Shown here: piece after piece, positions 3,637 through 61,635 of the stretch
Layout: every line of letters begins with the position of its first letter
Numbering within the stretch: position 1 is the first letter of the stretch
Assembly (NCBI RefSeq): GCF_006345805.1
Contig: NW_021826031.1
Location: 496,001 to 560,000, forward strand
Direction of reading: 5' to 3'
Source of the DNA: Octopus sinensis
Taxonomy: Eukaryota
Length of the DNA stretch: 64,000 bases
Translations under genes and position numbers: made by a program
The notes under the pieces: model-generated
The model's input: the letters and a program-made list of their open reading frames with translations, nothing else
The model's database searches: none
Told to the model about the DNA's origin: nothing

Positions 3637-4720
3637 TCATTGGCAGATAGCCAGAGTATTGCCTCTGACTATGGCTATTCGTTCTGTTAAATACCGGTGC
3701 TCAGAGGGGTCGCCGGTAACCCTTTCCATTAGTGAGCCAATCCGCAGGAGTAGGCTTCGAGTAAAAGACCCCAGTATTCCTGACGTTTCAACAGCCAGGG
3801 GGACAAACACTCTGCCATTCCCAATTCCAGCGTATTTCTCACCCTTTCTTTTCTCAGCCCGTTTAGACGGGATTTCTCCCGGATTTTCGATACTCAATTG
3901 GATATTCTGATTGGAAAAGGAGTTAACGCACGTGACGTCCCAAACCAGACACTTTCCCTTTCAAAAAGGAAAGGTGGTCATCCCATCGGGTTCCAATTGT
4001 GGAATCCAGCAGTTCGGAGAGATCGACAGATGATCTGGTTCAGTTCGGAATGTCGTGAGGAACGTCCAATTTTGTTTCGGCATGAGAGGGAGTGATATCC
4101 AAACTCGTCGGTTCACACGCGTTTTGCATTGGTGTTGTGCATAAACTGATAGACCGAGGCGTAGACAGGCTCCAATTCTTACGGATTCATCATTAAGGGG
4201 AAGGTACATCCAGATAGCAGTTTGTCGAATTCGGTCATCTATTTCCGAAAGGAAAGTTCGTCCGTGTTGACATTCACAATTTCACATTTGCTGCAGTTGA
4301 ATTCAAGCCCCAGCGCTCCGAAATTAAACACAAGCGACTTCAGCGTTTTTAAGATGCTTTTGGGGGTTCCTCCAATTACTCCATCATCCAAATACCACAT
4401 GTTAAGGTCAGTTTTACACGATCTCGTTGTTTGGTGGATTGCGAGGGAGAATAAGAGAGGACCTAGAGGGTTACCTTGTTGAACTCCATTGGCAGAATCA
4501 AGTATGGTTGTCCCGAATATAAGCGCGGAAGGCTTGGAGTATGCCAAGTTGACAATCGATAGGATGCACGGAATTACTTTGGCCCAGGCTTCAAGGATAC
4601 AGTCTCTTCTAACATAATTAAATGCATTCTTTAAGTCGATCTTGGCCAGAATTCGTTGGGAATCGGTGAAAGAGTTAACAAACTGGACCCCGGTCTCAGC
4701 GCCTCCTCGGATACAAGAAA
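3637..4720 (-). mobile_element. Degenerate CRE-like non-LTR retrotransposon (RT plus restriction-like endonuclease)
   Basis: GVQQGNPLGPLLF, WYLDDG, EPDGMT, FVPLAVETSG and RIAIVRGN motifs; frameshifts and deletions. Confidence 0.75.
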
Positions 4721-5104
4721 GATGGAAAAAATTCCCACAGGTCGTTCTTGCATACTATTTTTTAAGAACCCAACACAGAAGAAATGAAAAAACAACCATT
4801 ACATGTAACTTCATTTAACCTAAGAAATTCACATAAACAACAGCCAATCAACTTTTACAATGGAGAGTGTCTTTTGAAGACTTATGATCTGGATGCTCTA
4901 TTCCGGTAATAAAAGAAATCATCTAGATAGGCAATTTTTGATTTGAAAGTAGATTTGAGATTAAGAAATACAGATTAACGTCCTTGAAAGAGAAATTAGT
5001 CTGTTTACCAAGACCCGACTCTATCTTCCCCATTCTAATGATAAGACGAGCTCTTTTTAATCAAATCTATGTTGCGGAATGTAAAAATTCTGATCTCTCA
5101 ATTC

Positions 5105-23005: not shown

Positions 23006-24176
23006 ATGGCAAACGTTGAGCCCACAACTCTTTACATTTCTGGAATACATCCTAATACAGAAGAACGAGATTTGTCGGAACTGTTTTCCACAGTTCCGGG
23101 ACTCGTGGCAGTCAGAATGGCGGACTATTCCACTGGTTTCGATTCGAAACAGGCCTTTGCAGATTATTCGACAGACAGGGCAGGTTTGAGTATTTGATCA
23201 CATGCTATCAGCCGTCAGGGCAATAGAACAATTCGACTATAGTTTGTTCAAAGGATTGCCTCTACGAGTGATGAGAGCGAGCAGGGAGAAAAGCAAACAT
23301 GTTTGTGTCAAGGGAATTCCCTCCGATTACAGTCGCGATGACGTGACGCTCATTCTCAATTACTCAGGAAAAGTCGCGACTTTCGACGTAATTCTGATGT
23401 TTGTATCCACAGCTATTTCCCTCGGTGAATAATGAGCAGATGTGTTACGCCGAGTTTTATGAGGAGGAAGATGCAATCAAATGCTGTGAAACTCTCGACG
23501 GGTTTGTCACAGACGGAAAAAAACTGTAAATTATGGGATCTATTGCCAGGCTGTGCAATCTTTATTTCCCATTTTCGGGAAATGAAAATGTCGACCTCAA
23601 AGTGACAGGCTTCAAGAAATGTAACGAAAAAATGTTGTGGAAACTGTTTTCTAAATTCGGAGCAGTCAAAACTCGCATGGTATGTCTAACACAAATATTT
23701 GCAGGTTGTTGAACAAGACAAACCAGTTTATGGATTAGTCTCATTCGACACGAGAGCACTAGCAGAGAAAGTGAGATTCCCTTCATTACTTTCAGGCCAT
23801 TGATAAGATGGACGGGTATCTGGAGAATGACTCCGTGTTGACTGTAACGCGACTGTTGACATCTAAATCTGAGAAAAAGACGACTGAAGTGGACAAAGGC
23901 ACAACACTCGTCGTCAAAAACTTTGATTTGACAATCCCCGAAAGTACCTTCATTAATCTTTTTGAATCTTTTGGCGAGATCGTCAAGTACAAGGTTATCC
24001 CAACATTTCATTCCCAGATTGACAAAACTCCAAAGAACAATCGAGGATTTGCCTTCGTTACCTTTAGAGATTTTGATTCTGCAGAACATGCTGTGAACGC
24101 TCTAAATAATACTGCCTTTCTTGGAGAAAATGAACGTGCCAAAAAACTAAATGTCACTTTTTTTAAACTCTGTTAA
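23006..24176 (+). CDS. Divergent 4-RRM polyadenylate-binding-protein-like protein lacking the linker and MLLE domain
   Basis: RRM1 TLYISGIHP...FDYSLFKGLPLRVM (compare PABPC MNFDVIKGKPVRIM); RRM4 GTTLVVKNFD...NRGFAFVTF; about 4 micro-introns. Confidence 0.65.
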
Positions 24177-24247
24177 TAAATATGATAGACTTTCTATATC
24201 TATGAGACTTTTAAGTTGCTTAATTTTCATGCTTACTCATTTTTTAG

Positions 24248-24480
24248 TATCAGAACTTTTTATTCCCAGATTGTGAAAACTTCAAAGAGCAATCGAGGAT
24301 TTGCTTTCGTTACCTATAGAGATTTTGGCTCTGCAGAACAGGCTGTAAAGGCTCTTAATAATACTTCCCTTCTTGGTGAAAATGAGAAGGCTAAAAAACT
24401 AAATGTCACTTTTTTTAACTCTGTTAATAAATATTTTAGGCTTTCTATCTCTGAAAATTTTAAGCTTCTTAATTTGTGTC
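24248..24480 (+). repeat. Diverged tandem duplicate of the end of RRM4 and the 3' UTR (copy of about 23995-24225)
   Basis: SNRGFAFVTYRDFGSAEQAVKALNNTSLLGENEKAKKLNVTFF versus NNRGFAFVTFRDFDSAEHAVNALNNTAFLGENERAKKLNVTFF. Confidence 0.9.
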
Positions 24481-24614: not shown

Positions 24615-27600
24615 TTATAATTTTTCCAGATAATTAGTGGGAACAAATCCTGCAACCCCGTTCAATATCACTTTAGACCAGCCGTCACCACCTGCAATAG
24701 TGACCACGAACATGAAAATTACAATTTTCAATCAAATCGACCAGATCATTTTTATTCATGCTTAGCTCATTATCGCTCTGAGGCTCAAATTTGTATATTC
24801 CCTTGTACTTGTTTCTAATACTGGGTAAAGGGGGACTTGGTGGAGCACTATTTTATAAATAAAATAGCAAATACCCCCGGGCGTAGCTCCCAGCTTTGTT
24901 TGTGTCTAAAATTAATCAAAGTTTGATTACTGATGGGATTTACTCTCGTATTTGGAACATTCGGAACTAAAATAAAAAATTAATGAGCTGAACTGGTCGA
25001 ATTGGATAACCCTTCTCCAATTTTGATGACCAAGGACTTCAAACTTGTGGATAAAATTTCCATATCTGCTTGACCTTCTTTCTTAACTTGTACAGTGGAC
25101 TTTGAGCCTCCCATGAACCCCTTTTTCTGAACTTCAATTGTATATCTAAGGATAAAGACACGCTTTACTTGTCCACATAAACAATGTTGAGGGGCTCGTT
25201 TCCTGTTTCGATGCGGCATTTATTGAGGAAATACAGCAGTTCTGTTTTAAAAAGGCACTTTATGAGAAATGACCTTGACGTGAAATGGAGGCAGAGAAAG
25301 TCGTCCTGACAAGTACTAACGATGACAAGATATGACTTACCTCAAGGACACTTTGGTGAGTGTCGAGTGGACATCATTATGCATGATGACTTGGTTTATT
25401 TTGCCCTTGTCGGGGCCTTTGGCTACCTGGACATAACAAATGGCAAATGCAACTTGTTCTGCTCCAATTATATATATACAGTCCGACCCCCAAATGGGGC
25501 ACCAAGTGCCCCAAAATGCGGGGGTGCCCCAAAAACAGGGGTTTGTTATTTTTTTAAAAATTAAACCATTAATAAACATCAAAAAACATTTTTACTAAAA
25601 TATTCAGTTATTTTCTTTTTATTTGTAGAGTTTTGTCTGATATTGTTCGTCAATTTCAGCCGAAAATCAAAAAATCTCGGAGCATACTTGGTGCAACATT
25701 AGAAATTTTTTCTTCTAAATTGTTAAGCAGATCTTTTGTTTTTGCTACGACATTTTCACTATTTTCGGTTTCTGAATATGTATCATAAACATTATTGTTC
25801 ATGTCTTCGCATTCTCCATCAATTGTTTCGTTAACATCTTGATCTAAATGTTCATCTGTTAGACAGTTTTTTGTTGCATAAGAATCACGGTCCTGTCGAT
25901 TTTCTTCCAACAATTAACAATACTTTTAGCATCTATTTTCTCCCATCCTTTTGAAATTAGCATCATAACCTGACGCAAATTTAATTTACCAATAGAATGT
26001 GTAAAATCGTTTTCACATAAGATAATACTTTCTGGTCATATTTTTCAAAATAATTTTTCACATAAGATAAATCACATGAAGCTTTTTCACCACATATTGA
26101 CTTGAATTGAAGTTCATGCCGCAATTTAAATCTATCAAGCCACCCATTGGAAGCTTTAAAAGAAGTAAATCCAATTTTTGAAGCTGTAACTAAGGCAATT
26201 TTTTTCAAAATAGGGCCTGAAATCGGAATTTTATCTACGCGTAGTCTTTGAAATATTTCAAAGACTTGATCATCAAATTTATCTTTATCGGCTTTAAATG
26301 TGTCATATTCCTCAGAAATAGTATTGCCGTGTTGCAAGAAAGGTACAATATTTCGTTTTATTCTTGATATTGTTCCTTTACTTGTGTTGTACTTTTTCAT
26401 TAGTTGCCTCTCAGATAAATTTTTCTTCAAAATTTCTTTAGCAATCTTCAATTTAGTTTCGTAATCCATAACCACAACAATAAAAATATAAATTGAAAAT
26501 AAAACAAAAAATAATTAATTTATTATAATTTTATTTTATTTTTAATTCCTTATAAATGATTTTATGGTGCCCCAAAAATTCCATAATTTTTTATCGATTT
26601 TTATTTTTTTTCTGCCAAAATGTACTTTTGGAATAAAGTGCCCCAAATTGCGGGGGTGCCCCAAAATCCGAGGGTGCCCCACCCCTGGGGTCTGCCCCAT
26701 TTTGGGGTCGGACTGTATTCCGATTTGTGACAACGAGGTCTCGAAAAACCGCCTTGGGAATATATCAAAAGCAAATCACCTTGAAAATTCTGCTGTACTT
26801 GATAACGGTCTCTGAAAATAGTACTTTTTCTCGTTTTGGAATAAGGACAGCCTTTTCCGGCATGTTGCCAAGCCCGATATAGTCACCGCGGTATTTCCTG
26901 ACGATACTGTTCTTTCTCCGCTCCTTTTTATGCATCAAAAGCTTCGAGGCTGAGAAGTCAGTCCAACTGGGTATTACCCTCAATACAGGGAGTGTATTCG
27001 TGTGAACATCCCGCTATTTTCGTTAAGTAATTTTGCAGTATTTTTCCTGCCATATTTCTCTTAACTCCGATTCCATCTTCGATAAGAAAAAACTAGAAAT
27101 TAATTAGTAGAATGACAGTTTCGGGTTTTTTGATAAAGATTTTTGTCTTGCCGACAGCGTATTCGTCACTCGGGATGCTCATATTCTCCAGAATTATCAA
27201 AACGCCCTCCTTGGGGTCTCCTTTATACATTGGCCACGTTTTCGAAGAAAGGACGCTGTACCTACGGAATGTCAGTTAGTGTAATACCGACTGAGAAAAT
27301 TTTCAAATGTACTTCTGTAAGCAAATCCGGCTCTACGGACACGAATGTTTTCTTCTAGTCCAAGGTACTTTACTTGATGTTGAACTCTGTGGTGAAACCA
27401 GTTGGAAATACCTCGACTCGTCAAACTCTGATGGTTTTTTGAGGTCGTTTGGTTTGATGCAGCGAATGTAATGAGGGTTGCACTCCATCAACTTGGTCAT
27501 CAATTCTGCTGCCTGAGACCTGATTTTTGAGCCCGTAGTGGTGATTTTGCCGCGTCTCAACTCGGTTACGTCGTCAGTAAATAATCCCTTTATGAATTTG

Positions 27601-29516
27601 CTGACGAGAATACAGTAAGCAAAAAACCTTTTACTGCCTTGGAGAACCTGAACAATGTCTGCATTGAGAACGTCCCGGTTCCGTTCGCAAAATCCGTCGA
27701 CGTTGTAATTGACGTTTCCCGCGTAATGTTCAATGCTAAATCCCTTTCCGCCAAACCTGATTCGGGGGTTCGAGGAATGTGAAGACAGTTTCTATTTCCT
27801 AATAACCGGATGAAACCACCTCGACTAATTTCTGATCCACCCCTTCACTAGAGGCGTGCACAGTTTTGCAAATGTCGTCGGCAATTGAGAAAATCCCTGG
27901 AGGTGATTTGTTCTCAATGAGGTCACATATGACTTTGTTGTTGAAATATTTTATTTCTGTCCATTGGATACCTTCCCGGTTATATTCCTCCTGTTTGGAG
28001 ATAGTGGCATATGCGTACCTGCTCAGACTTGAGTGTCAACTCGATGAATATTTGCTGGAGTTTCTCGTTTACATAATTTATGCAGAATTGTTCAAATCCA
28101 TTTTTATCGAAAACTTCGAACCCGTAAATGTCCAAGATTCCCACATAACAGAGTTTTGACTTAATTTCCAAAACTTTGTTAACTTTCTAAAATCGCAACT
28201 ACCAGCTTCCCTCAATCAAAAAATCAAAGTTTCTGGCGTAAAGAGCTTTGGCAAGAGCATCGCGAACAAAATTGGCTTGTTCTGTGTTCAACAAGACATC
28301 AATGACTTCGCTCGTTTTGCCCCACTTGCTCTCCATGGTTCTCGAAATCAGATTCTTTAAAAGCAAGTCCTTCTCAATTTGGAGCAAACGCGCAGGGGCT
28401 TCCACAACTGGAAACACTCATTAATTCGTGAAACGATTGGGGTTGGTGATTTTTGATTTGTTTCCATCTTCTGCGAACGTCACATTTCCCAAATTCAGCA
28501 CCGCCGCAACGAGAGAGAAAACTTCGTTTTGAGTCTCCGAATCGAGTCCAATCACGTCCATGGCATTCTACGGACATGAGTACCCTCTCTCCTTGCCTTG
28601 GTACTTCTGAATTCCTCTTTATCGTCCATATCATCGTTATCATAAGTCCCTGTTTTGTTTATATAAGCGTAGTCCTCGCATTTTGTCAAACACAATGATC
28701 CTGCAATAGTTTGGAAAATATTCACTCAGTTTGCTGTTGTCAAAACCAGACAAAATTTGGTAGAAAATATGAAAACTTCTCTCGCCTTTGAACGCCGTGA
28801 CAACACGTGACTACATACTTTAGTCGGGGTTACTTTCTCTAACAAGAAGGTTGAGATCACGGTTCCGTCGGGGACTCCTCCGCTGAAATAGATCTGCACG
28901 TACTTGCCCTACACATAGAACAGGATGTTCTTACAAATCGACTCGAGTTGTTGTTCCTCAATGTTTTTGCGTTTCCGAAGGATTCAAGAAGAGGGTTGGT
29001 CTGGAGAATTATGTTTTTTGTTTTCTACGAATACTGGAAACTAAAAAACTTCCGAATTGGGTCCCCCTCCGGAAGATTTAATCAAATAGTTCATGATGGA
29101 CACACAACTGAAGGTCTTTCCCGCTCCTGACTCTCCACTGAAATAATATTCAAGAACACATGACCTGATTATGCAGCACTGGTTTTCCTGATAAGAGCAA
29201 ATGTTGGTCAGCATTGAGTCGGCAATGGCATACAAGTGGGGACTGTTTTCATAGATTGCCTAAATAGAACTGAATTGCCCTACAGCCCCCATATATGTTT
29301 CCATTTTGGCCGTCGTAAAAATATTTAATTTCTTGTATGGGTTGATAGCAATGAGCACAGGGCCGATATAAGTCTGGCCATATGACTAGAGACTGGTACA
29401 TATATTTCATCATTCGAGAAACGCAACTGGAGAGCCTTCATCACGTTTGTCGCAGTAATTTTCTCTAGTAAAACCAAATCACTGATTCCCCTCTTTACTC
29501 CTCTGTCTGTGGCCAT
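24615..29516 (-). CDS. MYO1E: Long-tailed class I myosin (MYO1E/F-like: motor, TH1, SH3), with the TH1 exon interrupted by a transposon
   Basis: [83 protein letters not shown], and SH3 GDGW...[11 protein letters not shown]. Confidence 0.9.
25479..26715 (-). mobile_element. pogo/Tigger-type element with deleted DDE domain, inserted in a myosin exon
   Basis: TIR cagtccgacccc(c/a)aaatggggca; TA TSD at 25477-78 and 26716-17; subterminal ggggcac/gtgcccc repeats. Confidence 0.95.
25981..26475 (-). CDS. Transposase N-terminal DNA-binding region (HTH plus CENP-B/Tc5 HTH), 164-aa ORF
   Basis: [22 protein letters not shown] and [15 protein letters not shown]...SICGE motifs. Confidence 0.8.
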   Translation of the reverse strand: MVMDYETKLKIAKEILKKNLSERQLMKKYNTSKGTISRIKRNIVPFLQHGNTISEEYDTFKADKDKFDDQVFEIFQRLRVDKIPISGPILKKIALVTASKIGFTSFKASNGWLDRFKLRHELQFKSICGEKASCDLSYVKNYFEKYDQKVLSYVKTILHILLVN

Positions 29517-29689
29517 TCTTTAATTCGTACGCAGATCTATAGATTTATTCAATTTCAATTGCCGTAGTTAATAGCATAATTTGTAACGGGCAAACATTTC
29601 CGTGCTAATCCAGAACAATCTTAATCTGTGTTTAATAACTTTGTTTCTATAAATCACATATTATTTTCGTATTCTCGCATTGAGGCAGC

Positions 29690-30510
29690 ACTGAGAGATC
29701 TCAAAACAAAGTGCGAAAAATCGATGCCGATGAAATTATATATGCAGACGACATAAACTTTGTGTCAGAAAATGATCAGGAACTTGCATCTATTTTTGAG
29801 AAAATTCCGGAAGAATTTGAGAGATGGTGTTTGCACGTTAATCGAGAAAAGATTGAACACGTAAGAATCGCAAGGGAATCGAAATATATTGATATGAAAG
29901 TTGGAAGAAAAAAAAAATTGGGATCATTACTTGGTGATAGTGAGGACATGATGTACCGGAGAGTTTTAGGCTCTGGAATGTACAAGAAAATGCAAAAGAT
30001 ATGGAATCATAAAAAACTTCAAAAAACAAACCTCAAGCTAAAGCTGTACAACGCATATATAAAACCAGTACTCATGTACAACTCGGGTACCTGGGGTGTC
30101 ATGGAAACAGAGTTACATAAAATTGACACGTTTCACAGAAAACAACTACGCAATCGACTGGGCCTAGGATGGCCAAAAAATATTCCTAACAGAAAATTAT
30201 ACGCTATGACACGATCGGTGCCAATAAGCATCGATATTATAGAATCAAGGTGGAGGCTGTTTGGACACGGACATAAACACACCAGCAAACACGATAATGG
30301 ATGATTACTTTAACAATAACAACAAAACACCGTTCAGAGGAAGGCCCAGGGTCGCTCTTCGTGTTGCACTAAACAAAGATCTCTATGGAATTGGAAGAAA
30401 ACTTGGTTGTGCTAACGACCTTGAAGACCTACGAGTATATGCTCAAAGCAGACCCCGATAAAGACGCCTGGTGAACAAGATTTCTGAACGTGCGGCACAA
30501 ACGGGACCTT
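29690..30510 (+). mobile_element. 5'-truncated RTE-like non-LTR retrotransposon
   Basis: IIYADDINF, LYNAYIKPVLMYNSGTW, SRWRLFGH and MDDYF...FRGRPR. Confidence 0.85.
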
Positions 30511-54999: not shown

Positions 55000-56500
55000 A
55001 CCATATTTTCTGAGGTGGTCATGGTTATACATTTAGCTTATTTGACTGCCGTATTTCTGTTAATTCTTTGGTACTAGGCACTATTTTAAATTTTATTTAT
55101 TAACTATTGAATTGTCTGAATCTAGGTCGTCTGCATATATTAATTCCTAGGCCAATTTTAGCTCTCAAATCACGGGGAGCAGTTTCCAGGTAAAAAACGA
55201 ATAGAATCGGAGATAAGGAGTCACTTTGTCGAGTGGCAATGTATGCTTTGAATTTAAGAGAGTGCTCCGAGCCAATCCACACTTCCAATTTAGTGTTTGC
55301 GAGTAGGACATGTATCATTCTCAAACTGTCATAATCCAACAATGTTCCTAATAGCTGAATAAGGTTTTCTCTGCGAACAGTGTCAAACGCTCTGGATAAA
55401 TCTATCCCCAGTATTTGAACTGCCTTTTTGAATTTCTGTGTCATGGCACATGCCTATTCCACATACAAAAATTTGTCAACGTTAGGAGATATTCTGTGAA
55501 GAACAATCAACGACAGTAGTTTTTGTAGAGATGTTAAGAGAATTATAGGTCTGAAATGTTCTACTGATCCAACCAACTTTCCTGATTTCTGTACAAGAAT
55601 TAGCACTCTTCCGAGTAGAACGTCTGTATGTGTCATAAAAATGCCGTTTAATATGTCGCATAACTGATAAACAAGTGAGCTTGGCGAGCATTTTAAAAGT
55701 CCTTCATTAATGCCACCAATACTCCTACCATTATTCAATTTCCGCAGAGCAGTTTCCATCTTTGTGATATTAATTAGAACAGTTAGATATCTAGGATCTC
55801 CAAAAAACTAAAGTATGTACTCTTTGTCATTTCTAAAAAGGGATCCAAAGTATATAGCAATTTTTTCGGCCATCTCTTTTTTATCAAACATTCTTCTTTC
55901 ATAGTCATCATGTAGAAAAAACTCTTTAGGCCTGTCTATTCTGTTCAACAATCGAATAAGCTTGAAGCATTTTAGGTCATAATTGAGCTGTTCAACTTCT
56001 TCGGCGTACTTCTAAGTTCCAGCGATGATTAGATGGATATACTCGGGATTCAATTTTGAATCAAATGTGCTGAGTTTCTTATTGAATTTATTGCTCGTAG
56101 CATCGTTTGCGTGTAAGTTTTCTACGGCCAGTCTTCCATAGGAATGTTTCTTGTTTTTTCTTTTAATCACATTTTGACGTAAATAAAGTTTGAATCGAGA
56201 GACAACAGCTTTATGGTCACTCGATAGAAGTGTGCCTCCTTACAAAGATTGTGAGTCAGTCAGCATTCACTTAAAATTACGTCTACAGATGATTTAATCA
56301 ATTTGATTGTAAGTAGGTAGAATTTTCCCATTCTGGTTCTGTCTTTGCCCCACCTACGTCGTCATATGTCTTGTCCGATGTATTAATGTCGTGTTGCACA
56401 AAAAAAGATCAAATGAACTGCAGAAGTCTGTTAAAGCTACGCAATTTGAAATCCTTGTTCCTCTACTATGATCTCAGATAAAATTTTCGTCCTTACTTTG
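55000..56500 (-). mobile_element. Degenerate RTE-like element (endonuclease and RT remnants)
   Basis: YNQID.IICRR, FRPIILL, IDLSRAFDTV and RQSDSLSPILFVFYLETAPRDL. Confidence 0.75.
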
Positions 56501-58615: not shown

Positions 58616-59500
58616 CAGTACCGTGCAAATGTTCCGGACCACCCAATTATTTTTAAATTCTATATATATTTGGCACCTACGGCTTGACTTTCTTAGACAA
58701 ATTTTAATATTAAATGAATAAATAACTTTTGTACTTTTTCCATAAAATTTTACAATATTGAATTTTTAGCAGTCAGTAAATTTTGACCCGTGCATATGTT
58801 CCGGAAAAATTACATTAATCTTGACTTTAAAAAATTACATTAATCTTGACTTAAAATTTCTTATTTTAAGTTTCGGTTTTTTTACCATTATTCTACCATG
58901 AAGATTATTGGACCTTAAACATCGTTTAATCGTATCTACAGAAACGGATAATGACAAATTGAGATAAGATCTAATTTGATTGGCTGTTTTAGAAGGATCC
59001 ATTTTTGATCGATAAACAATATTTCGTTCATTTCTTTTAGATAACTTCTTGGGTCTTCCAAATTTAGGTTTATCCTGAATTATGGAACATGTAGAATATC
59101 TTTTAATAGTTCTCTGAACTGTAGACTTGGAAATTCCAACACATATGATATTTTTCTTTGAGACATTCCAAGTTTATACAGAGTGATAATTGAGGCACGG
59201 TTACCGAAACTAACACAAGGCATTTAACGAATGAAATATATATTGAGCATTAAAATATCAGATGAGAGTGTATTTAATAATAATTAAAAAAAATTAATGA
59301 GTGGTCCGGAACATATGCACGGGTCAAAATTTACTGACTGCTAAAAATTCAATATTGTAAAATTTTATGAAAAAAGAAAAACCAAAAAAGTTTTTTATTC
59401 ATTTAATATTAAAATTTGTCTAAGAAAGTCAAGCCGTAGCTGCCAAATATATATAGAATTGAAAAATAATTGGGTGGTCCGGAACATTTGCACGGTACTG
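58616..59500 (-). mobile_element. Tc1-family IR/DR-type element, internally deleted
   Basis: About 190-bp TIRs starting cagtaccgtgcaaatgttccggacc, with inner direct repeat ccgtgcatatgttccgga; TA TSD; paired-like HTH remnant GISKSTVQRTIKRY...GRPKKLS. Confidence 0.92.
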
Positions 59501-59729: not shown

Positions 59730-60390
59730 TTCGTACCGATCTCATCCCTCCGCATGGCTCTCTCTCATCCTGCGCCAATTGCCATTCTCCTGTGCAGATC
59801 CTGCAACGTGGTTAACAAAAAAAGAGGGCCCGACTCTGTTCTTCCTGTTCTCTGTTTTTTCGTCTCTCTTGCGTCTCTTTCCCTCGCCGGGCTTCGTAAC
59901 GTATTCCATCGTGGGTGTGTCCTGCCTGTCTCTCTTTTTATCCATGCATTCCACCATTACGATCCCTGGCATTTGCCACTCCCCAGATTCCTTCCCGTTC
60001 TCTGAGCCCATTTCTGGGACCCATTCTATCTTGTTAGTTCTCAAATCCACCAAACTCCTCCGCCGTCGCCGGCAAATTCCGTCAAGAATCCCTAAAGCTG
60101 CTCGTATCCTAGCAGCCTCTTCTTTGTCCACTGCAATTGATGAAGCTTTGGCCTCCGATGGGCAATCCGATTGGTTTAAGCTGTTCTGCTTTCCTCTTCC
60201 GGCCTAGGCTTTTTTCCATCCAGAGTCTGTAATAAAACTTCTTCCTCGCTTGCTACTATTGTCAAACAAAAATTGGCCTCGTACGACGAGTGCTGTTTTT
60301 GAAATTCGGCTCCGGGATATGACAAGATCCCTATGTCCTGCTTCAAGCATGCACCAAGCTGTTTGGTGTCTCTGCTCACAAACCTCTTCA
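59730..60390 (+). mobile_element. 5' fragment of a CRE-like element
   Basis: SRIPKAARILAA...WFKLFCF motif. Confidence 0.55.
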
Positions 60391-61635
60391 ATTCCAGCCT
60401 CCAGAGAGGGTACGTCCCAAAATCATGGAAAAAAAACTGAAGTTCGAATGGTTCGAAAACCTAAGAAACCTAAAGAGGAAGCCTCGAGCTATAGGCCCAT
60501 AAGCCTAATCTGCTCTATATCAAAGATAATGGAGAGAATCGTCTACAGAAGGCTAGTACGCCACATAGAAAAGAATCACTGGCTCTCCCACGATCAGTGG
60601 GGTTTTTGTGCGGACCGGTCCTGTGCTGACTGCATTTATCGACTGAATTCGATAGTATCTAAAGCACGAGACTCTGGCTTATCGACCAGTATTATCTGCT
60701 TGGATGTATCGAAGGCTTTCGACAGTGTCTGTCACTCAGTTTTGCTGGAAAATCTTGTGAATTGCGACATTGATGCGGAAACTCTTGAATGGCTAGCGAG
60801 CTTCTTGAATGGGAGGATCTCCTTTGTCAACTATCTTGGCCGAGACTCGAAAGCCATTCTCCAAAAAAGGGGAGTACCTCAGGGCTCAGTCCTAAGCCCG
60901 CTACTATTCAACGTATATATGGCAGACTTTCCTAAACCTGTGTTCATCTCAATGAATGTGCTCATCTATGCAGATGACGTCATTATTACGGACGAAGCAG
61001 CCCTTCCGACGACGTCGGAAATGAAGCTAAAAATTTACTTCGAACAAATACAACAGTGGATGGCCGTGAAATACTTGACTCTGTCAATCGAGAAATGTAC
61101 GCTCACTAGAGTGTCGGCAAAAAGAAGTGCGAAAATGTTACCATATACGATCGAATCCATCCGGAGGACCCACTTGTTTCTGTACCTGAGAGTCCAATTT
61201 TCCGAGAACGGAAGGTGTGAGGAAGATATCATCCTAAGGAAAAAACGGTGCACACAAATGATCAAGTGCCTGATCAAATTCCGCCTACCCCCAGATACTG
61301 TGCTATTCATCTTCCGGGCAGCTATCCTTTCAGTACTGATGTATGGCCTGGAAGGGTGGATTTTGTCCCCCTCCAAGGCAAGAATTATAAAACTGCTGAA
61401 GAAAACGAGGAGATTAGCGCTCAAGGTGGCCTTCGGCGTAAATCTAAGAGAGAAAATACCGAGCTGGCGCAAAATCTTTCCTATGATTGGCGAGCTTGTT
61501 GAAACCCAATTCCAAAAGTTCCTAGAGAAAAGAAGAAAATAGCCCCGGACGATCCTGTGTGTAAGGTCACTACTGGCACTTAATTTCTTTTATGTCCGAT
61601 ATCCCGTTGCAAAATAAACCCTTATCTATCTTATC
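60390..61635 (+). mobile_element. 5'-truncated LINE (Jockey/I/CR1-like) with an uninterrupted RT reading frame to 61542
   Basis: SYRPISLI, LDVSKAFDSV, GVPQGSVLSPLLFNVY and YADD motifs; AATAAA followed by a (TATCT)-like tail. Confidence 0.85.

Follow-up and report, generated by a model that had tools for sequence, protein, structure and literature searches.

A pogo transposon in a TH1 exon of a dicyemid-type myosin IE: probably one segregating insertion allele of a young family

The interrupted gene and its surroundings

The window, by which we mean the whole 64,000-nt stretch of DNA analysed here, is C2502:496001-560000 in a 2.72-Gb assembly of 13,516 contigs, and it carries a myosin IE gene whose TH1 exon is split by a DNA transposon (Table 1). 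When the element and one TA are omitted, our gene model (29516-24615) encodes 1,002 aa in which Pfam recognizes Myosin_head, TH1 and SH3, and the motor, IQ region and C-terminal SH3 together give the layout of a long-tailed class I myosin. Over 910 aa the product shares 50% identity with P0116, a MYO1E-like protein of a mollusc. The 25 introns of the model measure 23-31 nt (median 26), and two of them have unusual borders, one GC-AG (28596-28568) and one GG-AG (28210-28187). The RNA-type contigs of sequencing run X2 skip four of these introns, among them the GG-donor intron (24 nt, minus strand). A sequence-only reading of this DNA had held that the gene is otherwise intact, and the model bears this out.

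The element sits in a conserved strand of TH1. An alignment with seven MYO1E homologues is ungapped at the insertion point and there are no indels among the seven around it. These homologues came from a separate homologue search; the representative search gave only motor fragments (46-70% identity), which were not used, and a homologue search with the TH1 piece alone returned no match. The flanks of the insertion are single-copy in the assembly by sequence search. Six TH1 matches were found in the assembly, of which only the one on C2502 is of the micro-intron type. A second intact MYO1E locus of that type, an outcome that the sequence-only reading had set against its own proposal, was thus not found among them. 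One of the TH1 loci, on C9337, has two exons 1.6 kb apart and was considered as another interrupted myosin; it was rejected, since this gene is of host type, its intron is an ordinary GT-AG one, and the locus contains microsatellites and does not match the element. Myosin IE is thus the only TH1 myosin found for the organism that carries it, and its knockout should be costly.

That organism is most likely a kidney parasite of dicyemid type, pooled for sequencing with its octopus host, because the micro-introns of the window match those of dicyemids (median 27 bp; PMC6543705, PMC13644364) and a host-type MYO1E, with ordinary introns and exons 95-100% identical to the Octopus protein P0071, lies on chromosome-scale contigs. 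Besides the chromosome-scale host contigs the assembly includes many small ones from a second animal, whose introns measure 23-31 nt, and all 73 element ends described below lie on small contigs. A published dicyemid genome shows 1.24% heterozygosity and 49% repeats (PMC6736024).

The window holds other repeats. The last RRM exon of the gene convergent with myosin IE is present as a tandem duplicate (about 24010-24180 and 24260-24430). Mobile-element remnants lie at 29684-30304, 4242-4754, 55103-55453, 58838-59173 and 60208-61539, made up of four ORFs for reverse transcriptase and one HTH of Tc1 type. One of the reverse-transcriptase fragments lies about 170 bp upstream of the myosin IE start codon.

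Table 1. Coordinates of the split gene, the inserted element and related features (positions are those of the window unless a contig is named)
Feature	Position	Strand	Basis or remark
Myosin IE gene (motor, IQ, TH1, SH3)	24615..29516	-	hand-built model, blastp/MAFFT check, Pfam
5' half of split TH1 exon	26716..26752	-	alignment-checked gene model
3' half of split TH1 exon	25454..25476	-	alignment-checked gene model
Intron after 3' half of TH1 exon	25453-25427	-	27 nt
pogo-superfamily DNA transposon, internally deleted, non-autonomous	25479..26715	-	comparison with full-length copy L007
5' terminal inverted repeat, 23 bp	26693..26715	-	identical in all copies examined
3' terminal inverted repeat, 23 bp, one mismatch to 5' repeat	25479..25501	+	mismatch family-wide
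TA target-site duplication, upstream side in gene orientation	26716..26717	.	
TA run holding second TA (25477-78)	25469..25478	.	
Truncated transposase ORF, 162 aa, HTH_Tnp_Tc5 DNA-binding domain, catalytic domain missing	25981..26469	-	
Deletion junction private to myosin copy	26015..26022	.	513 nt of full-length element replaced by 8-nt filler
3' remnant of transposase ORF (approximate bounds)	25579..26014	-	alignment to L007
88-nt GT-AG segment skipped in runs X3 and X6	25541..25628	+	contigs, other family copies
Putative AKAP17A-like gene	L101, C9495:313347-313538		Pfam
Putative CAAP1-like gene	L109, C9535:37711-37905		Pfam
Putative RTCB-like gene	L111-L112, C9077:57603-58931		Pfam

The element and its family

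The element is 1,237 bp long and has the same orientation as myosin IE. It is bounded by TA on both sides and by 23-bp terminal inverted repeats (TIRs) with one mismatch, as the sequence-only reading had described. Removing it with one TA restores the frame, as also claimed, and the resulting 17-aa junction peptide aligns without gaps to the MYO1E homologues. Frame restoration says nothing on mechanism, however, because the same result follows whenever a TA-duplicating element inserts into an intact exon. In its empty form the site reads (TA)5, which is longer than any other TA run in the myosin IE coding sequence. Read-through meets a stop 41 codons into the element, close to the 40 or so codons estimated before.

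Compared with the full-length copy L007, the myosin copy shows only 2 substitutions and two 1-bp gaps apart from its internal deletion, whose 8-nt filler is templated from 26055-26070, 45 nt away. Transposase residues 150-320 are missing, and with them all three catalytic Asp. The sequence-only reading was therefore right about the loss of the DDE domain; the TIR mismatch that it also seemed to take for decay is real but common to all copies examined, and hence no sign of decay. Near the 3' end of the element, contigs of runs X3 and X6, which come from two other studies, skip an 88-nt segment on the strand that is antisense to transposase and myosin. This suggests spliced antisense or read-in transcripts of family copies. 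Both runs hold the element at about 99% identity together with only short, diverged bits of myosin, and are uninformative on myosin IE.

A DNA search with the element gave 264 candidates, of which 40 were scored and proved mostly 99-100% identical. An exact 32-mer of the 5' end matches 73 times in the assembly, always on small contigs, and these ends reduce to 60 distinct insertion sites. Here the inner end of the nested copy L010 is excluded, which takes 61 flanks to 60 sites and 47 two-ended entries to 46; for 14 sites no 3' end was recognised in the stretch examined. Substitutions relative to L007 have a median of 0.15% over 71 copies. A full-length element measures about 1,744 bp, and L007 and L022 keep an open 465-aa ORF with HTH_Tnp_Tc5 and DDE_1 domains and DD29D spacing (catalytic triad D160, D266 and D296 in L007). 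TA stands on both sides in 47/47 two-ended entries, and the preferred target is A-TA-T, with A at -1 in 29 and T at +1 in 23 of the 47. Internal deletions mark 24 of the 46 two-ended sites, with breakpoints that are nearly all different, as expected from excision followed by abortive gap repair (PMC3814204). By its TA duplication, 23-bp TIRs and the transposase domains of its full-length relatives the element classifies as a new member of the pogo superfamily, and the family is young and still spreading, with an intact DD29D transposase in some copies.

Some copies have themselves been invaded: a copy nested in the 5' part of another, recognizable by a doubled 262-bp 5' end (L010, L011, L018, L019), is present four times on three contigs. 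A second pogo-like family (L096-L099 and others), about 66% identical in the catalytic region, has dozens of copies on the same small contigs.

To describe where the other copies sit, we scanned the flank ORFs of the 59 other sites with Pfam (248 of 251, the three inside the nested L010 end being left out). Nine of the 59 sites adjoin a transposon-type ORF (RT, DDE, HTH), a count for which we took DUF659, DUF6451 and zf-C2H2_12 to be transposon-associated. Five lie 30-430 bp from host genes, and none of these five was found to be exonic. We also applied a gene finder for micro-intron genes that had been trained on the motor domain alone. Among controls it recovered 8 of 16 exons and called 1 of 47 shuffles, and among the 46 junctions it flagged 4, namely the held-out myosin site and L041, L022 and L058. 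The latter three were rejected as exonic insertions and assigned to retroelement remnants, the flanks of L041 and L022 presumably so, as judged by eye from motifs. Thus, with detection that is about 50% sensitive, 1 of the 46 two-ended sites is a recognisable host-exon insertion, and it is myosin IE. The lack of other interrupted exons, which the sequence-only reading had also set against itself, therefore holds within that detection limit of about 50%. At 8.6% coding, a proxy obtained by arithmetic from a table in PMC6736024, neutral insertion predicts 1.3-2.7 exonic sites. The single site observed is compatible with this expectation and speaks for no enrichment, at a power too low to show depletion. 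Beside one element copy (L070:508-1166) lie ORFs of the aminotransferase class IV and DAHP/KDO8P-synthase families. The latter family is, to our knowledge, unusual for an animal, and these ORFs are possibly a bacterial transfer or contamination.

Four of the other sites were also searched by flank, and for two of them, both non-exonic, there are contigs with the empty, one-TA counterpart. The pair L059/L089 differs at 2 and 7 positions in 700 on each side and the pair L066/L104 at 2 and 3 flank positions; the flanks of the two pairs are 98.7-99.7% identical. L036 was not counted as an allele pair, having only paralogous empty copies at 91-96%, nor was L062, which sits in another repeat family. 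Since non-exonic sites also have filled and empty forms, presence/absence variation is general to the family rather than peculiar to an exon. Pairs of filled and empty contigs would equally be expected from differences between germline and soma.

The empty site in sequencing runs

Four of 14 sequencing runs were examined (X1, X2, X3 and X6), all as contigs. In DNA run X1, a contig of 2,824 nt joins 25476 to 26716 and skips 1,239 nt, that is the element and one TA. Its depth is 69, and neighbouring unique contigs stand at 64, 64 and 82. Over 2,613 positions it differs from the window three times, once synonymously (24681) and twice in introns (24697 and 28194). An unbroken myosin IE allele therefore exists as DNA. 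X1 is possibly the source sample of the window itself and hence not independent. Flank substitutions separate filled from empty forms at all three sites seen in both, the myosin site included, in what is a polymorphic pool read through contigs that carry no phase.

No contig with a filled junction is listed for X1, and the depth in the bin beside the junction is exactly 69. In assembly graphs, a short branch that leads into a high-copy repeat can be lost during cleaning. Because contigs drop rare variants and minor paths, X1 gives no filled:empty ratio, and its unbroken contig fits a 50:50 mixture, a rare filled form and a germline-only element alike. We thus rejected both the unbroken contig and the X1 word share of 0.93 as measures of allele frequency.

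Three internal stretches of the element reach depths of 4,674, 4,361 and 4,555 in X1, which at 69 per copy makes 68, 63 and 66 copies, and the assembly holds 69, 59 and 60 copies over the same stretches (57, 47 and 50 distinct sites). This is a rough, contig-depth estimate; as the family depth in X1 matches the copy number in the assembly, the pogo family is not removed from bulk DNA as a class.

Run X2 comes from the same sample as X1 and was taken as RNA since four micro-introns are skipped in it. It covers myosin IE exons on both sides of the insertion at a depth of about 3, and myosin IE is thus shown to be transcribed and spliced; no X2 contig lies over the insertion junction.

One insertion allele and its alternatives

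To explain these results we propose that the element is a recent, segregating loss-of-function allele, heterozygous or confined to a minority of the parasites, which stands beside an intact allele. We put this at about 80%. The insertion duplicated a TA, has full-length relatives with an intact ORF, and is missing from an exact empty form in DNA; from these and the spliced myosin RNA we infer its allelic status, its frequency and the loss of function. The transposase of an autonomous copy would have cut and pasted the element into a preferred A-TA-T site, and its catalytic domain would have been lost when an excision was followed by gap repair that aborted and left the templated 8-nt filler. 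A long-read assembly of many parasites pooled in host tissue may then have kept the filled haplotype, and the short-read contig would follow one that was never interrupted. Translation of filled-allele transcripts would end 41 codons into the element, so that the SH3 domain and most of TH1 would be missing unless rescue occurs at the RNA level, and the empty allele would supply the myosin function. The sequence-only reading had listed a recent or heterozygous insertion as the last of three options, and it is the one that fits best.

Its headline was another: programmed excision resembling that of ciliate IESs, in which the element stays in the germline and is cut out during somatic development with one TA left behind, so that bulk DNA and mRNA are empty. 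The exact empty junction is indeed the path followed in X1 bulk DNA, in a myosin IE that is otherwise intact and single-copy. Moreover, genome rearrangement and chromatin elimination have been reported for dicyemid somatic cells (Noto 2003 and Awata 2006, as cited in PMC6543705), and a pogo-derived MITE forms IESs in Blepharisma (PMC9942856). Yet the same junction is also the pre-insertion state, and a TA-bounded element with a one-TA empty form is therefore not diagnostic. The X1 family depth would confine removal to a few sites, a recognisable host exon is hit at only 1 of 46 sites, whereas in Blepharisma, with its 77% genic genome, about 70% of IESs are intragenic (PMC9942856), and the substitutions between filled and empty flanks at all three sites would be left unexplained. 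With the family undepleted in bulk DNA, exons not enriched and filled/empty pairs outside exons, we find no support for this headline and regard programmed excision as quite improbable. Our literature searches gave no report of programmed excision of transposons in dicyemids, and in the literature found the reported elimination of somatic DNA in this lineage is never tied to defined sequences. If true, it would be the first IES-like gene repair in an animal and would give dicyemid chromatin elimination a defined target. Empty sites might instead be made by unprogrammed somatic excision, through the family's own transposase and end joining. The family is active, with an intact transposase, Tc1 empty sites accumulate in the C. 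elegans soma via NHEJ (PMC13148408), and a TA run could, we suppose, favour scar-free repair. The typical somatic Tc1 footprint is, however, +4 bp (78%, PMC13148408), X1 has one clean junction and the other family copies are not depleted, which makes this route very improbable. Hardly any weight remains for an assembly chimera at the filled site. It would account for the missing filled-junction contig in X1, for the depth of exactly 69 in the bin beside the junction, and for the word share of 0.93, near the 0.945 expected if all window-private words were absent; but exact TIR ends, a duplicated TA and a deletion found in this copy alone, with its templated filler, are what real transposition and repair leave behind.

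Other alternatives act on RNA. The earlier note missed one of them, SOS splicing, a spliceosome-independent and imprecise process that cuts TIR elements from mRNAs in C. elegans and human cells (PMC12779559). A filled allele common or fixed in part of the population could remain functional if pairing of its TIRs triggered such splicing. In C. elegans, exonic Tc1, Tc3 and Tc4 are removed from 90-100% of mRNAs, and paired ITRs suffice without transposase (PMC12779559). Here, RNA contigs cover the exons 3' of the insertion, and compact parasite-type contigs carry, besides the host copies, Pfam matches over the cut-off for three candidate SOS factors, AKAP17A-like (C9495), CAAP1-like (C9535) and RTCB-like (C9077). 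These putative genes are present despite the reduced parasite genome; a second, broken RtcB match lies at C2292:174097-174867. Against this, no RNA contig spans the junction, the process leaves indels and rescues only poorly conserved regions (PMC12779559) whereas the myosin site is a conserved TH1 strand, the TIRs have 23 bp compared with 54 nt for Tc1 (PMC12779559), and the empty DNA allele already explains the RNA. We consider SOS splicing unlikely as the main explanation; it could possibly act on top of a segregating allele and partly rescue its filled form. The sequence-only reading had instead offered the spliceosome, which would splice from a GT donor at element position 3 (26713) onto the acceptor at 25427, taking out 1,287 nt as an intron and leaving an in-frame product 7 aa shorter. 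Both sites exist in a shared phase 0, the acceptor being the only in-frame AG downstream of that GT, and the 88-nt skip in X3 and X6 family copies means that introns longer than 31 nt occur in such transcripts. All 25 myosin IE introns are nevertheless 23-31 nt, the protein would lack a conserved TH1 strand, IYIIGAEQ, and the proposal finds no read support and no RNA contig over the junction; it is highly improbable.

On our reading there is nothing unusual in the case, which amounts to a single insertion allele of an active pogo family. Even so, the myosin locus is a ready-made assay that could tell polymorphism, programmed DNA excision and SOS splicing apart, and the assembly is flagged as carrying many contigs of a second, micro-intron animal.

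The element resembles the pogo superfamily of Tigger, pogoR or Lemi type in its TA duplication, TIRs below 40 bp, single 465-aa ORF, 1.74-kb length, HTH_Tnp_Tc5 and DDE_1 domains, DD29D triad and many internally deleted derivatives. In that superfamily, type 1 TIRs reach up to 40 bp and the triad ranges over DD29-59D, DD29D fitting Tigger, pogoR and Lemi (PMC7386202). It differs in that no CENP-B_N match was found here, the copies sit on parasite-type contigs and the myosin copy is non-autonomous. About half of the copies here have internal deletions with short homology or filler at the junctions, like the deletion derivatives of Ac, P and Tc1 that are attributed to abortive gap repair or microhomology (PMC3814204), but the deletions of the present family are nearly all singletons rather than an amplified MITE family. 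Exonic Tc1 alleles subject to SOS splicing in C. elegans share a TA-bounded TIR element in an exon and an early read-through stop (PMC12779559), and AKAP17A-, CAAP1- and RTCB-like genes are predicted on parasite contigs; in contrast, the myosin case has shorter TIRs, an empty DNA allele and no junction transcript seen. Finally, the IESs of Paramecium and the pogo-derived MITE of Blepharisma are likewise TA-bounded, transposon-derived, exonic and reduced to one TA in their empty form (PMC9942856). Theirs are germline-limited, number thousands, are mostly intragenic and are cut by a domesticated piggyBac (PMC9942856), whereas the pogo family described here stands at full copy number in bulk DNA, rarely enters exons and brings its own intact transposase.
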